Shown here: one piece after another, positions 1-13,901 of the stretch | How the letters are laid out: each line of letters starts with the position of its first letter | Numbering within the stretch: the stretch's first letter is position 1 | Virus record (IMG/VR): IMGVR_UViG_2675903575_000011 | Origin: a virus | Taxonomy: Duplodnaviria > Heunggongvirae > Uroviricota > Caudoviricetes | Strand: one strand, 5' to 3' | Length of the DNA: 15,248 nt | The notes under the pieces: generated by a model | Seen by the model: only the letters and a program-made list of their open reading frames with translations | What the model was told of the DNA's origin: nothing | Database searches by the model: none | Program-made: the position numbers and the translations under genes

Positions 1-1059
1 TTAAATGCGCTGGTCATTTGATATAGGTAAAATGCTTGTAAAGAGTTTTTCGTCATATAGTGCGTACTCAGGTATGTAATCACCATTGCTTTTACCTGTT
101 TGGAAGATAGAGGGGTCCTTGTCGATTAAAACATATAACTCAATGAGAATATTTCTTAGTCCCCAAAGCATTTGCTTTAGTTGTTTTTCATCATTGAATG
201 AGATGCTTATGGCTTCCGTATCTGGTTTTGGATGTTCAAGAATTATTGAGAAAAGATGTTCTTGGTATTTATAATCAATTCCAAGTAGTCTGCAAAGTTG
301 AATTATGTTTGATTCTATGAGTTGTAGGCTAACTAATTGGTCGTCATGATTTTTGTTGTTGGACTTAAGCGATTTGTTTATGTTGTTATAATGATTTGTT
401 GTTTTTCGAATAAAATCTTCTTCGACAACGGTGCTATAGCCATTATCAATGGAAGATGATTTGAAAATATTTTTATAAAGAGTGTACGGATGAACTACAG
501 ATAGTTCAATACTGTCTATATCACTAGTTTCTTTATTTAATCTTGATAATTTAAATGTTGGTAGTGTTTGGAATATATCAGCGAAGCTTTTCAGATGTGA
601 GTAATATGAATCAGTGGTATTTTTTTCAATAACAAGATTGATTTGCTTTTGTGTTTTTTCTATTTGGTTCTCTGTTTGTGTGGTTCTATGTATATTGTTG
701 ACGATTGCTGCAAGAGGTACCGAAGAAGCTAAAATAAATAATGGCAATTTAGAAATGTCAAGAAAGTGATTAAAACCGTCTGATGTGAAATTTAAATCGT
801 GGCCTTTCCAAGCCCAGAGGCCATACAAAACAAACATTTTTAACGGTACGATAATAGATGCTATGAATAATGGTTGTTTTAATAGATTTTTCTCATTTAG
901 TTTAAGCCAATTGAAGCAATAGAACATAAGTATCAATCCAAGTATATAAGCTACACTAAAGAAGATAAAAACTCTTGGACGATTAGTGTATATCAATGCT
1001 AAGGCAATTAAGATAGTAATGATTGCGTAGGTAATGATTAATGTGAGCTTTTTTTTCAT
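1..1059 (-). CDS. AT-rich membrane protein of unknown function (about 352 aa; 4 predicted N-terminal TM helices plus about 230-aa soluble C-terminal domain)
   Basis: Complete ORF on the minus strand (stop TAA at 1..3). Preferred start is ATG at 1057..1059 (MKKKLTLIITYAI...), 4 nt after the int stop, rather than the upstream in-frame ATG at 1101 that would overlap int. Hydrophobic stretches LTLIITYAIITILIALALIY, VFIFFSVAYILGLILMFYCF, LFIASIIVPLKMFVLYGLWAW, LPLFILASSVPLAAIV. Composition is markedly more AT-rich than the phage core by eye. Confidence 0.5.
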   Translation of the reverse strand: MKKKLTLIITYAIITILIALALIYTNRPRVFIFFSVAYILGLILMFYCFNWLKLNEKNLLKQPLFIASIIVPLKMFVLYGLWAWKGHDLNFTSDGFNHFLDISKLPLFILASSVPLAAIVNNIHRTTQTENQIEKTQKQINLVIEKNTTDSYYSHLKSFADIFQTLPTFKLSRLNKETSDIDSIELSVVHPYTLYKNIFKSSSIDNGYSTVVEEDFIRKTTNHYNNINKSLKSNNKNHDDQLVSLQLIESNIIQLCRLLGIDYKYQEHLFSIILEHPKPDTEAISISFNDEKQLKQMLWGLRNILIELYVLIDKDPSIFQTGKSNGDYIPEYALYDEKLFTSILPISNDQRI

Positions 1060-1063
1060 TCTA

Positions 1064-2080
1064 TTAAACCAAATTATGTAAAGGATTTTTTGTAACAGCA
1101 TCTTCTAGATGGTCTGGAGAAAAGTGTGCGTAAACCATCGTCATTTTTATATCGGCATGGCCCAATATTTCTTTAAGGACAAGAATATTCCCGCCATTCA
1201 TCATAAAATGACTGGCGAATGTATGACGCAGCACGTGGGTGCATTGGCCCTCTGGTAGCTCGATGCCTGCTCGCTTTACTGCTCGTTCAAAGGCTTTTCT
1301 GCACGGTGTGAATAGTTTCCCTCTGTTCTTGGGGAGTTCATCATACAGATTTTGAGATATCGGCACGGTACGATTTTTCTTACCTTTTGTCTTGGTATAG
1401 GTGATCCGGTATTTTGATAACTGATGGCCCTGCAAGTTTTCTGCTTCACTCCATCGCGCACCAGTAGCCAGGCATATTTTTGCAATCATTAGTAGGCTGG
1501 TGTTTTGAGATTCGGCGCAGGCATTAAGCAGGCGTTTGATTTCGTCCGTGGAAAGAAAAGCCAATTCACCTTCAGCAATTTTGAAGGTTGGAAGCCCTGC
1601 CAGCGGGTTTGGTGCGGACCAGTGCCCTAGTTTTTTCAATGTACCGAACACCGATGACAGGTTACGCTGCTCAAGATTAACTGTGCGAGGTTTAACGGGT
1701 GACATGAACGAGCCGTCTTCATTTTGGACCTCCCCCTTTAATCTGGCTTCCCGATATTTTGTGAAATCACCTGCTGTCAGCTCAGAGGCGATGGGATCGC
1801 CTAGACCATTACAGATAATTCTAAGTTTCGCCATCAGGCGTTTGGGGTCTGCGAGTGTTTGACCATATAGGGAATACCACTGCTCAATCACTTCTGATAA
1901 TCGCCGCCGATCTTCCTTCTCACCAAGCCATGGCTTTTTGTTTACTTCGTCCATGGTGAAGCTTTCAAATGCAATGGCTTCGCCTTTGGTAGCAAATTGC
2001 TTACGCACGCGCTTACCATTGCGTCCATTGGGATAGCACTCACACAACCATTTTCCGTTCGGCTGTTTTCTGATGGTCAT
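1064..2080 (-). CDS. int: Tyrosine-type site-specific integrase (P2/186 Int family)
   Basis: 338-aa ORF with a C-terminal catalytic region typical of tyrosine recombinases (…HVLRHTFASHFMMNGGNILVLKEILGHADIKMTMVYAHF…: the R, H-x-x-R and Y residues). Lies directly downstream of the repressor gene on the same strand, as in 186 (cI-int operon). Confidence 0.9.
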   Translation of the reverse strand: MTIRKQPNGKWLCECYPNGRNGKRVRKQFATKGEAIAFESFTMDEVNKKPWLGEKEDRRRLSEVIEQWYSLYGQTLADPKRLMAKLRIICNGLGDPIASELTAGDFTKYREARLKGEVQNEDGSFMSPVKPRTVNLEQRNLSSVFGTLKKLGHWSAPNPLAGLPTFKIAEGELAFLSTDEIKRLLNACAESQNTSLLMIAKICLATGARWSEAENLQGHQLSKYRITYTKTKGKKNRTVPISQNLYDELPKNRGKLFTPCRKAFERAVKRAGIELPEGQCTHVLRHTFASHFMMNGGNILVLKEILGHADIKMTMVYAHFSPDHLEDAVTKNPLHNLV

Positions 2081-2083
2081 AAG

Positions 2084-2722
2084 TTAGAGGTTCTTGATTA
2101 CTTTGACTGCACGTCCTACGACTTCCACATCATCTACAGAACATTCAAATGAAGTGTCATCTTGGTTAACTACTATTTTGTTTCCGGGTATGCGCGCAAT
2201 TTTGACGATGCTTTTAACTCCGTCCATATCGACTAACCAGAAGCCATTACTGACTTGTTTAACGGACGTATCCACTACAAAGCTATTATTAGCTGTTTTA
2301 ACAAATAAAGCGTTGGATGAGTCACCATCGAGCAGGCTGCTATCAAGAAGAATTTCATCACTTGCCTGCAGTTCGCCGTTCTTCAGTTCAACACGTTTGA
2401 TGCTAGGAGCAACGATCTTAGAAAGTGGTCTTACAGTGACGGGAGGTTCATTTTTGAGATTTGTTTCTTCGTTCTCACACGCATACATATCTCCTTGACC
2501 AGTAGCCAGCCATAGAAGGGAAGCTCCTGTTTCAAGGGCACATTGAATTACCCATTCGGCAGGAAAGCTATCCCTTAAGTATCTGTTAGCCATAGTGCTT
2601 TTGGATACCTCCAGATGTTCGCAGAGCTGCTGTCGTGAGCTGAAGTTGTAAGCCTTAATAAGCCTGTTAATTGCATCGCGCCCACCACTATCATTTCCCG
2701 CCTTGATCAAACTCATAATCAA
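2084..2722 (-). CDS. cI: Phage immunity repressor CI (186-type: N-terminal HTH, C-terminal LexA/S24-like beta-barrel)
   Basis: 212-aa ORF divergent from the apl-cII lytic operon. N-terminal HTH-like segment (SSRQQLCEHLEVSKSTMANRYLRD; CALETGASLLWLATGQG). C-terminal segment NGFWLVDMDGVKSIVKIARIPGNKIVV resembles the LexA C-terminal domain as recalled from memory. Confidence 0.8.
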   Translation of the reverse strand: MIMSLIKAGNDSGGRDAINRLIKAYNFSSRQQLCEHLEVSKSTMANRYLRDSFPAEWVIQCALETGASLLWLATGQGDMYACENEETNLKNEPPVTVRPLSKIVAPSIKRVELKNGELQASDEILLDSSLLDGDSSNALFVKTANNSFVVDTSVKQVSNGFWLVDMDGVKSIVKIARIPGNKIVVNQDDTSFECSVDDVEVVGRAVKVIKNL

Positions 2723-2727
2723 ACCCC

Positions 2728-2756
2728 TTGACGTATATAAAAAGTGATCCTAATAT
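2728..2756 (+). promoter_or_regulatory. Near-consensus sigma70 promoter (TTGACG-17 bp-TAATAT) facing the apl-cII operon; pR-like lytic promoter
   Basis: TTGACG at 2728..2733, 17-nt spacer, TAATAT at 2751..2756, about 75 bp upstream of the apl start; position equivalent to pR of 186. Confidence 0.5.
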
Positions 2757-2776
2757 CCATTTATGGTTTGAAAAGC

Positions 2777-2817
2777 AAAACCAAACCACATAAAACAAGA
2801 TAAAACGAAACCAAACT
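2777..2817. promoter_or_regulatory. Direct repeats AAACCAAAC (2778..2786 and 2808..2816) with interleaved TAAAAC repeats (2791..2796, 2801..2806) in the cI/apl switch region; candidate repressor or Apl operators
   Basis: Repeats at about 10- and 30-bp spacing between the lytic promoter and the apl start codon. Confidence 0.3.
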
Positions 2818-2832
2818 AAGAGATACTGCACT

Positions 2833-9137: not shown

Positions 9138-10811
9138 ATGGAAAAATATCAAGATGAGGAATATGTAGATGATTTAACTGAGCGTGTTTTTCTCATTAAG
9201 CAACAACTGGAAGCGGGAAAACTAAAAATAGCTCATCATCTTGTAGAAGGTTTTATTGAAAGTTTTAAAAGAATAAGGCTGCGACAGGATGGTAAAGTTG
9301 ACCCTTCTACTGTTGATGGCAGAATAAGGGCTATGGGAGCAGCGGTTAATCACTTTTTAGAAAGAGAAGATATAAAAAACAAATACTCTATTCAGGACTT
9401 GCAAAGTTCTTACTTTAATATTCTTTTTAGTAATTTTGGCGAGTTGTTTTATCTGATGAAAAAAACTAATGCAACGCCACATAAAGCATCAAGTTTTTTT
9501 TCTCAACAAGAAGAATATGTTAAGCAAATAGAAGATATTTTTCCTGAGTTATATAATCAGGTAATAGAGTTTTGGCAGGTAACATCCGATATTGGTGTAA
9601 TACATTTGCAGGATGGTTCTCAGTTTAAAGCTAATTTTTCTGGTGACTTATTTCCTGCATTTGATGAGAATGCTGTCTCTATTGCAGGGTTGTATGTTGA
9701 TACTATTTCACTTCCATGTCCTATATTAAGAGTCGGTCGTCTCTATGAAAAGTCAGATAAGGCTGAGTTTACAAGGATACTTCTGAAGCATGTCCTAACA
9801 TGTATGACATATAAAGAAGTAGCGCTTGAAGATATAGAGCCAGCAATAGTATTAATTTTGCCGGATAGAAGAGATTTTGAAACTGAGAGCAAAAAAAATT
9901 TGATGAGTTTTTGTGAGCCTTATGCTCTGACTCATGCGCAATATCTCTATGATCGACGGTTCGAAAGCTACGATGAATTTCGAGATTTTAGTTATTCGAT
10001 GAATGATATTGATGCTGTTCTTAAAAATATTAAGAGAGCAGATAGACTTATTTTTGATACAGCATGGGGGCTAAATCCAAAAACTCAATTAGAAAAACTA
10101 CTATCTGATAAAAAAAGAATATCACGTAATGTTGTTGGTGATCATGCTGGAATGGAGGTTTTCCTTTCCTGCATTGGAAGAATGCCGCAAGCCTATTCAG
10201 CAAAATGTAATGCACAAGAACTTGGTAGTACTCCATATATAAATGCAGACACATCTTGGCTCTATTATACTTGGCTTATTGAGTACGAATCTCTTAATTT
10301 TGATGTCAATGATATTGAACTAAAAAATTTGCATATGGTTCATGCGTTATCTGCTGGTATGCAAGATGGTTTTTCATGGTTAGGAAATGTACCGGTCAAT
10401 AAAATAATTGAGTTGAGACGTAACAAATTGATGGAGGATGTAAGATCCATCTTATCAAATGGTGTTGACTCTTTAATCAATTCTTCGGCAGAGAGCTTTT
10501 CGAGGACAACGCAAAAAGTAATTGATAATGTAGACCGGGCTTTTATTGAACATCAAAGGATTCTTGCAAAAGCCCAAAAAGAGAAATTGAGAATTTACGG
10601 ACTAGATGTCCTACCATGTATCGCAAATGGTGCTATAGCAATTGCTGGAGCGCTGACTGGCAATACTACTTTAACGGCGTTAAGTGCAGGCCTTGGAGTA
10701 ATAGGTATTCCGAGTATTAGTGATATCAAATCTAAATTTAAGCAGAGGCAAGAGAAGCTTGATGCCTATCAACGTTCTGTTACAGGTATACTCTTTAGCC
10801 ATAAATCTTAA
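9138..10811 (+). CDS. Orphan AT-rich 557-aa protein, unknown function; candidate phage-borne defence/exclusion protein (soluble N-terminal region plus C-terminal glycine-rich hydrophobic hairpin)
   Basis: Long uninterrupted ORF with RBS (ggag at 9129..9132) 5 nt before ATG 9138. Composition visibly AT-rich versus flanking phage genes. No Walker A or other motif I can recognise. C-terminal ANGAIAIAGALTG...LSAGLGVIGIPSI is hydrophobic and glycine-zipper-like. Convergent with the portal gene and ended by a hairpin. Confidence 0.7.
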   Translation: MEKYQDEEYVDDLTERVFLIKQQLEAGKLKIAHHLVEGFIESFKRIRLRQDGKVDPSTVDGRIRAMGAAVNHFLEREDIKNKYSIQDLQSSYFNILFSNFGELFYLMKKTNATPHKASSFFSQQEEYVKQIEDIFPELYNQVIEFWQVTSDIGVIHLQDGSQFKANFSGDLFPAFDENAVSIAGLYVDTISLPCPILRVGRLYEKSDKAEFTRILLKHVLTCMTYKEVALEDIEPAIVLILPDRRDFETESKKNLMSFCEPYALTHAQYLYDRRFESYDEFRDFSYSMNDIDAVLKNIKRADRLIFDTAWGLNPKTQLEKLLSDKKRISRNVVGDHAGMEVFLSCIGRMPQAYSAKCNAQELGSTPYINADTSWLYYTWLIEYESLNFDVNDIELKNLHMVHALSAGMQDGFSWLGNVPVNKIIELRRNKLMEDVRSILSNGVDSLINSSAESFSRTTQKVIDNVDRAFIEHQRILAKAQKEKLRIYGLDVLPCIANGAIAIAGALTGNTTLTALSAGLGVIGIPSISDIKSKFKQRQEKLDAYQRSVTGILFSHKS

Positions 10812-13385: not shown

Positions 13386-13901
13386 NNNNNNNNNNNNNNN
13401 NNNNNNNNNNNNNNNNNNNNNNNNNNNNNNNNNNNNNNNNNNNNNNNNNNNNNNNNNNNNNNNNNNNNNNNNNNNNNNNNNNNNNNNNNNNNNNNNNNNN
13501 NNNNNNNNNNNNNNNNNNNNNNNNNNNNNNNNNNNNNNNNNNNNNNNNNNNNNNNNNNNNNNNNNNNNNNNNNNNNNNNNNNNNNNNNNNNNNNNNNNNN
13601 NNNNNNNNNNNNNNNNNNNNNNNNNNNNNNNNNNNNNNNNNNNNNNNNNNNNNNNNNNNNNNNNNNNNNNNNNNNNNNNNNNNNNNNNNNNNNNNNNNNN
13701 NNNNNNNNNNNNNNNNNNNNNNNNNNNNNNNNNNNNNNNNNNNNNNNNNNNNNNNNNNNNNNNNNNNNNNNNNNNNNNNNNNNNNNNNNNNNNNNNNNNN
13801 NNNNNNNNNNNNNNNNNNNNNNNNNNNNNNNNNNNNNNNNNNNNNNNNNNNNNNNNNNNNNNNNNNNNNNNNNNNNNNNNNNNNNNNNNNNNNNNNNNNN
13901 N
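13386..13901. other. Assembly gap (516 N)
   Basis: Uninterrupted run of n; length is consistent with the X counts in the ORF track. Confidence 1.

Follow-up and report, generated by a model that had tools for sequence, protein, structure and literature searches.

At the left end of a prophage, directly behind the integrase gene int, lies a gene for a membrane protein, orf353, and its position raises two questions: does the gene belong to the phage, and what does its product do? The DNA is the IMG/VR record IMGVR_UViG_2675903575_000011, a stretch of 15,248 nucleotides (nt) that was analysed whole and is referred to below as the window. It comprises the left part of a 186/Fels-2-like (P2-related) Escherichia coli prophage integrated at ssrA. 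The gene is almost certainly cargo of a hotspot between int and the attachment site (att), and an anti-phage function of some kind is probable for its product. The best explanation overall, taken as a compromise across the levels of claim, is that orf353 is slot cargo encoding a lysogen-expressed, membrane-anchored anti-phage protein; the chances of this complete reading are evenly balanced.

The gene and the prophage boundary

The features at the left end of the window are as follows.

1..1059, minus strand: orf353, membrane protein gene, assigned as accessory cargo of the int-attL slot (open reading frame and homologue alignment)
1060..1063, minus strand: spacer of 4 nt separating orf353 from the int stop (homologues: +4 to -4 nt)
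1064..2080, minus strand: int, 186-type tyrosine integrase (Int_N and Phage_integrase domains)
2084..2722, minus strand: cI immunity repressor, first gene of the presumed leftward lysogenic operon cI-int-orf353 (Phage_CI_repr and Phage_CI_C domains)
2723..2832, no strand: cI/apl intergenic switch region, expected site of the face-to-face promoters pR and pL (pL by analogy with phage 186)

orf353 has 352 codons plus a stop and runs on the minus strand from an ATG at 1057-1059 to a TAA at window positions 1-3. Upstream of 1059 the frame stays open as far as an ATG at 1101, inside int. The start at 1059 (MKKK) is where the homologue alignments begin, and the same start is used in the RefSeq annotation of the near-identical copy in E. 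coli KE58. Given the base composition of the gene, 352 codons would stay open by chance with a probability of about 4e-12, and the ratio of nonsynonymous to synonymous substitution rates (dN/dS) is 0.13 against an allele 82.8% identical in DNA; orf353 is therefore a real gene under purifying selection. A preliminary description of this DNA had called the gene strikingly AT-rich, in agreement with a GC content of 31.5% (29% at third codon positions) versus 46% for int, 43% for cI, and 53% for repA. It had also placed the frame 4 nt behind the int stop on the same strand, which is exact: the int stop codon occupies 1064-1066, and the spacer reads TAGA on the coding strand. The coding strand across the junction is ...TTTAATAGAATGAAAAAAAAG, in which no Shine-Dalgarno sequence for orf353 is evident.

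The end of the element can be read from the KE58 prophage, which is 99.8% identical over window positions 1-2100. In KE58, an exact 46-nt copy of the ssrA 3′ end (the attL core) lies 113 nt past the orf353 stop, and the second copy of the 46 nt is the end of the real ssrA, 35 kb away and adjoining ogr. The prophage boundary therefore lies just outside the window, with orf353 inside the element, and the expectation that the boundary would be found beyond the window start was correct. The preliminary description had seen no tRNA- or att-like sequence between int and the gene; this holds for the whole window, in which no tRNA, tmRNA, or ssrA att core is present. An attL between int and the frame, named beforehand as the mark of a host gene, was looked for, and no att is located there.

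The KE58 arrangement is general. In 17 of 17 sibling E. coli loci, the att copy is found beyond the gene or genes behind int, and a deleted prophage remnant in strain BE2-5 retains both att copies within 5 kb. Integration at ssrA is known for the P2-like phages SopE-phi and Fels-2 (PMC3448106). The chromosomal neighbours beyond orf353 vary (ypjA, a CP4-57-like integrase, or glaH), while the linkage to int is kept, also across genera; the other mark of a host gene considered beforehand, homology to a host transporter conserved at this chromosomal position, was not encountered either.

The int-att slot

The attP arm measures about 113 nt, is conserved in all sibling loci, and ends with two TGYCGCCAY 9-mers. 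Similarity between loci ends right after the last of these 9-mers. In strain NQ3 (L043), the slot is empty and the arm abuts the int stop directly, so cargo is inserted exactly between the attP arm and the int stop. The slot turns over rapidly and is hypervariable among sibling phages, as seen in ten siblings sampled evenly down the int similarity ranking, with the following content.

3 of 10 siblings: diverged alleles of the orf353 family
1 of 10 siblings: an annotated GapS1 family protein
5 of 10 siblings: unrelated AT-rich genes without known function
1 of 10 siblings: empty

An annotated anti-phage dCTP deaminase occupies the int-att slot in 20-25 complete genomes. Its gene lies on the strand opposite to int (L018, 1872-3605), and the GapS1 gene lies on the int strand (L036, 1465-2985). 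The window allele of orf353 is present in 6 complete E. coli genomes, the 83% allele also in 6, and two further alleles in 5 and 2. In a 2026 survey of P2-like phages, the P2 int-att interval is described as a minor defence hotspot that holds 3% of P2 systems (PMC13586616). All the features expected of hotspot cargo are found at orf353: a position between int and att, variable content with conserved flanks and an empty state, and known defence systems in the same slot.

Some slots hold two genes. In E. coli ZYS9073 (L042, 603-1796) and Klebsiella aerogenes (L004, 7184-8377), a 375-residue family member is followed by a second gene of 397 residues, whose product has no Pfam domain and no hydrophobic segment. 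The pair is possibly a two-gene variant of the system.

The TGYCGCCAY 9-mers occur as pairs, 11 nt apart, on both att arms (L001, 7982-8001; L031, 25851-25900), with one copy inverted on the right arm, and the first base of the orf353 stop codon is shared with the last 9-mer. They are probably arm-type binding sites for Int (or for Apl). On the other side of the element, a conserved leftward gene of 160 residues sits between ogr and ssrA in sibling prophages (KE58, L031, 25342-25824; L002, 11835-12317). Because this gene lies opposite the int-side slot, attP has accessory genes on both flanks.

Architecture and topology of the protein

Within the gene, three regions are distinguished.

694..1047, minus strand: four predicted transmembrane (TM) helices, codons 5-122 (hydrophobicity, AlphaFold2 model, and loop charges)
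571..912, minus strand: conserved family core, codons 50-163, comprising loop 2, TM3, the outer loop, TM4, and the juxtamembrane helix (family alignment)
4..570, minus strand: fast-diverging C-terminal alpha/beta domain, codons 164-352 (alignment and dN/dS)

The four N-terminal TM helices followed by a soluble domain, as initially proposed, are recovered both as hydrophobic segments (residues 5-24, 29-49, 63-84, and 104-122) and in an AlphaFold2 model built on 39 homologues, with a mean predicted local distance difference test score (pLDDT) of 80.7. The model places helices at residues 2-24, 28-48, 63-84, and 94-111, a long helix at 113-163, and an alpha/beta domain at 169-335. The last N-terminal helix runs almost directly into the long helix that ends at residue 163. 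The N terminus and loop 2 are net positive and loop 3 is net negative; on the basis of these loop charges and the positive-inside rule, an N-in/C-in topology is favoured, which suggests that the variable domain is cytoplasmic. The C-terminal domain matches no solved fold, and PDB sequences searched with a profile yielded nothing but designed coiled coils (E >= 0.018).

A large family with a conserved core and a variable domain

A word-indexed search yields 52 relatives, every one of them from Enterobacterales and annotated as “hypothetical”. A full search with the family profile, run against 1.8 billion cluster representatives, extends the family to 929 clusters (50% identity) at E <= 1e-3 and 173 at E <= 1e-30, with named members in Enterobacterales, Morganella, Proteus, Providencia, and Pseudomonas. 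A scan of the genome_contigs collection gives five loci only. The orf353 product matches phrog_17460, a PHROG without known function, at E = 2.4e-48 over residues 32-267. Pfam and PADLOC scans were run at E <= 10 for the query and its close relatives and at E <= 0.01 for distant members. Among 44 members, PADLOC models give faint matches in single members only. A match to the NCBIfam model RoaM (18 bits versus a cut-off of 400) and a Longin_2 match in one homologue were rejected as composition or coiled-coil noise. Four family-member accession numbers are mentioned neither in paper texts nor in the DefensePredictor supplements.

Conservation is distributed unevenly along the protein. Mean pairwise identity reaches 82% in TM4. 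Loop 2, TM3, the outer loop, and the juxtamembrane helix lie at about 55%, TM1 and TM2 at 22-24%, and the C-terminal domain at 21%. The invariant residues are G80, W84, G95, F99, K104, P106, L107, L110, A111, P115, I119, N122, H124, R125, T126, Q128, Q132, N147, and K157. The conserved TM/juxtamembrane module has the pattern GF..F...K.PL...A...P...N.HRT.QT..Q, which includes the juxtamembrane motif NxHRTxQTxxQ. The substitution ratios follow the same division, with a dN/dS of 0.08 for codons 1-160, 0.19 for codons 161-352, and 0.033 for int. Between genera, Int remains 92-94% identical, whereas the adjoining homologue retains about 36% identity. A conserved core joined to a variable C-terminal domain, beside a near-constant Int, points to an arms race.

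The surroundings of the homologues fall into several types. The 186-like prophages of Klebsiella, Enterobacter, Citrobacter, Lelliottia, and E. coli invariably have the homologue behind int, at a spacing of +4 to -4 nt. A distant family member (profile E = 5.9e-14) is encoded by the 14.6-kb PM2-like (Vinavirales) temperate Vibrio element 10N.286.54.C7_PE001 (PQ189345.1). There the gene (L032, 12824-14506) follows a LexA-like repressor gene with a 0-nt gap, its first base being the one after the repressor stop. It and the integrase gene lie at opposite ends of the element, and its product has only two hydrophobic segments. The Pseudomonas homologue sits in a defence island between AbiTii, Lamassu-type (LmuB_C), and Mrr genes. 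In Proteus, the gene lies at one end of a prophage, with PRTase-CE and DUF4747 genes nearby, and in Dickeya it adjoins genes typical of integrative and conjugative elements (DUF3577, DUF3275, DUF6094, and an SNF2-like helicase).

The plasmid collection contains no family member except in one mis-assembled record, CP019275.1, “plasmid p13P477T-2” (37 kb). The record was considered as an excised phage and rejected, as it contains, besides the prophage, the chromosomal genes ssrA, smpB, ratA, bamE, and recN. It has many frameshifted genes and is entered in the phage collection as well as the plasmid collection. Its appearance is that of a chromosomal segment that was mis-assembled, rather than of a replicon, and it is no evidence that orf353 is packaged.

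Probable expression in the lysogen

In phage 186, the lysogenic promoter pL transcribes cI and int. At the left end of the window, orf353, int, and cI likewise run leftward, and no promoter-like or terminator-like site was found between int and orf353. A rightward promoter-like site is present at about 2728-2756, in the cI/apl intergenic region, where in 186-type phages the leftward pL faces pR (PMC7498355). By this analogy, orf353 is most likely transcribed from pL as the third gene of cI-int-orf353, and we infer that it is expressed in the lysogen. The near-zero spacing and the missing Shine-Dalgarno sequence, together with the uninterrupted junction, suggest that orf353 rides on the cI-int transcript and is translated by coupling to int.

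Proposed function and alternatives

From the dCTP deaminase and GapS1 genes in the sibling slots, the published hotspot (PMC13586616), and the neighbourhoods of the distant homologues, we infer an anti-phage function for orf353. A specific mechanism can be outlined, although a sensor/membrane-effector model of abortive infection is considerably less probable than a defensive role as such and is put forward tentatively. In a lysogen, the pL transcript would carry cI-int-orf353, with translation of orf353 coupled to that of int. The product would reside in the inner membrane with both termini in the cytoplasm. TM3, the outer loop, and TM4, together with the juxtamembrane helix bearing NxHRTxQTxxQ, may form a common working module that acts as effector or anchor. 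The C-terminal domain of about 190 residues would be the specificity element, sensing a phage component in the cytoplasm. In response, the inner membrane would be damaged or gated by the membrane module, and the lysogen would be protected from other phages through an outcome of the abortive-infection type.

The proposal can be extended to the family, with no greater assurance. Each member may be an immune sensor consisting of one membrane-anchored protein, in which a conserved TM/juxtamembrane module is joined to a fast-evolving cytoplasmic recognition domain; Peduoviridae, PM2-like Vinavirales, and other mobile elements would place such genes in repressor operons. The family might constitute a new class of abortive-infection or exclusion proteins, acting on the membrane by a mechanism that has no described precedent.

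Several observations weigh against an anti-phage reading. No family in PADLOC-DB 2.0.0 matches the orf353 product at E <= 10, neither Pfam nor NCBIfam detects a convincing domain in it or in 43 distant members, and a search for structural neighbours gave nothing informative for the full model or the C-terminal domain. Database names are all “hypothetical protein”, with the exception of one UniRef entry, “Phage abortive infection protein”, in a 73%-identical cluster; the source of this name is untraceable, and no Pfam or PADLOC model reproduces it. No anti-phage phenotype is known for any family member. The argument from location is circumstantial, since half of the sampled slot genes are also without known function. 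Expression from pL rests on the analogy with phage 186, topology and oligomeric state are predictions, and residues 90-108 are conserved yet modelled with low confidence by AlphaFold2.

Among the competing explanations, superinfection exclusion at the envelope is the main rival. Here the product would block the entry of incoming DNA without killing the cell, as P22 SieA, T4 Imm, lactococcal Sie2009, and Streptococcus thermophilus Ltp do. Its location in a lysogeny operon beside int is that of ltp in phage TP-J34 (PMC3952083), the product is a predicted membrane protein, its quickly diverging part could track phage ejection proteins, and the reasoning of the preliminary description covers exclusion equally well. 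However, the positive-inside rule predicts a cytoplasmic variable domain, and only about 19 residues (85-103) would be periplasmic. It is mainly because this short loop, the sole periplasmic part, is conserved rather than variable that a block of DNA entry is disfavoured. The Pseudomonas members also lie in a chromosomal defence island with abortive-infection and restriction-type genes. Exclusion is accordingly judged unlikely, though it is the least unlikely of the alternatives. A lysogenic conversion unrelated to phage resistance, in which orf353 changes the physiology, envelope, or fitness of the host, for example through surface modification, stress tolerance, or colonisation, is less probable again. 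Temperate phages also classically carry AT-rich genes for serotype conversion and fitness beside int/attP, the product is matched by no defence model, and the half of the sampled slot genes without known function suits conversion as well. Yet the Pfam scan of the orf353 product detected no domain of the glycosyltransferase, acyltransferase, GtrA, or transporter type, and the contrast between the conserved core and the variable C-terminal domain, with Int near-unchanged, speaks for an arms race. The annotated defence genes in the siblings' slot and the location of homologues among defence genes point that way too.

The tight coupling of the family to int in many 186-like prophages of several genera could instead reflect a phage life-cycle factor, a membrane protein that controls integration/excision, lysis timing, or induction. 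This is most improbable: one sibling slot is empty and others hold unrelated genes, and members also occur away from int: beside genes of integrative and conjugative elements, on a chromosomal island, and in viruses of an unrelated order. A host gene, or a part of the abutting CP4-57-like island, could be mistaken for cargo because the window ends at the orf353 stop and the boundary is invisible within it. That reading is rejected on the att positions, with the att core beyond the gene in 17/17 loci and orf353 staying with int while the outside neighbour changes; the chance that it is correct is negligible. A membrane-anchored anti-phage protein carried as slot cargo remains the preferred explanation.

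Implications

An AT-rich, lysogen-expressed accessory gene in a published P2-like defence hotspot is already known as a type. The orf353 family itself is large, has no match among the Pfam, PADLOC, and NCBIfam models searched, and has no solved relative. If it is anti-phage, a widespread single-gene family, with members in Enterobacterales, Morganellaceae, Vibrio, and Pseudomonas, would be added to the defence repertoire. In 186-like phages, the small int-attP slot would then be used systematically for lysogen-expressed immunity, since genes in it would be carried on the cI-int transcript. The division into a conserved membrane core and a variable C-terminal part is an experimental handle, as domain swaps between alleles could map the sensed target. 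In practice, genes of this sort influence the host range of phage therapy in E. coli and Klebsiella. The family recurs in repressor operons of unrelated temperate viruses and is a good candidate for experimental testing.

Other features of the prophage

To the right of cI, the window continues with rightward genes for apl/Rha, cII, fil, a TraR-like protein, dam, and replication gene A. These are followed by an AT-rich open reading frame of 557 residues, then by the portal (Q) and terminase (P) genes leftward and the scaffold gene (O) rightward. A run of 516 N at 13386-13901, masked or unresolved sequence, lies inside the terminase large-subunit gene (P), through which the frame is not readable.

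The 557-residue frame (9138-10811, plus strand; 35% GC) is a second cargo gene, located in what is classically the old/tin defence hotspot of P2, the interval from replication gene A to the portal gene. Pfam finds no domain in its product, and PADLOC matches the product weakly to DitB of the Aditi system (E = 7.3e-10, residues 195-452); a DitA-like partner was not seen. At this position, the near-identical KE58 prophage carries different genes, which encode a hypothetical protein and an AIPR family protein.

On the chromosomal side, the prophage is found in tandem with a second ssrA-targeting island (L002, 6434-7663; L003, 5403-6632; L001, 3102-7682). The DNA beyond attL is either this island, which encodes a CP4-57-like integrase together with a serine recombinase and two ParB-like proteins, or what remains of it, with ypjA.

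Comparison with known systems

Lambda RexB is a four-helix membrane protein encoded in the cI-rexA-rexB operon, and Rex combines a cytoplasmic sensor with a membrane effector in abortive infection. The orf353 product shares with RexAB, and with SieB of lambda and P22, the presumed co-transcription of a membrane protein gene with the immunity repressor gene in the lysogen, and with RexB the number of helices. In orf353, however, the sensor and membrane parts would be fused in one protein of 352 residues. There is no partner gene at orf353 and no PADLOC, Pfam, or PDB match to support RexB-like traits, RexB not having been compared directly.

Lactococcal AbiC, an abortive-infection protein of about 340 residues with N-terminal TM helices, is likewise encoded by a single AT-rich gene. 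No AbiC-type (AbiC/putAbiC) Pfam or PADLOC model is detected in the orf353 product or in P0231, P0005, and P0222 at E <= 10, nor in 43 distant members at E <= 0.01. The serotype-conversion proteins Gtr and Oac usually have nine or more TM helices versus four in the orf353 product, in which no such Pfam domain was found; Acyl_transf_3 appears faintly in one of 44 members (E = 0.0012).

The superinfection-exclusion proteins Ltp of TP-J34, lactococcal Sie2009, and Glo of the P2-related Vibrio phage K139 are, like the orf353 product, envelope-associated and encoded beside int or the repressor gene (PMC3952083, PMC4870250); their genes are expressed in the lysogen, as orf353 probably is. In contrast to orf353, whose product is predicted to be largely cytoplasmic and shows no homology to them, these proteins, which are lipoproteins, have a single membrane span, or are periplasmic, act outside the cytoplasm.

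The arrangement of N-terminal TM helices and a soluble C-terminal domain is also that of the TM effectors of cyclic-oligonucleotide-based anti-phage signalling systems (CBASS) and pyrimidine cyclase systems for anti-phage resistance (Pycsar), and of the four-helix KwaA of Kiwa. In the predicted structure, the long helix that continues the last TM helix could transmit a signal. Unlike these systems, orf353 has neither a cyclase gene nor any other gene as a partner; the attP arm follows it directly, and the orf353 product has no SAVED, cNMP-binding, or CARF domain. As for Kiwa, the orf353 product has no KwaA match, KwaA is matched in one of 44 members (E = 0.004), and no KwaB-like (DUF4868) neighbour is present.

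The defence hotspots of P2-like phages, namely the minor int-att hotspot (PMC13586616) and the main hotspots (Rousset et al. 2022, PMC9122126), offer the comparison by location. The text of PMC13586616 does not describe the orf353 family; neither “transmembrane” nor the four family accession numbers occur in it. Although orf353 differs from the known hotspot occupants in that it matches no PADLOC-DB model, it lies between int and att as they do, in an interval of hypervariable, AT-rich content with conserved flanks, and a dCTP deaminase and GapS1 are found in the very same slot.

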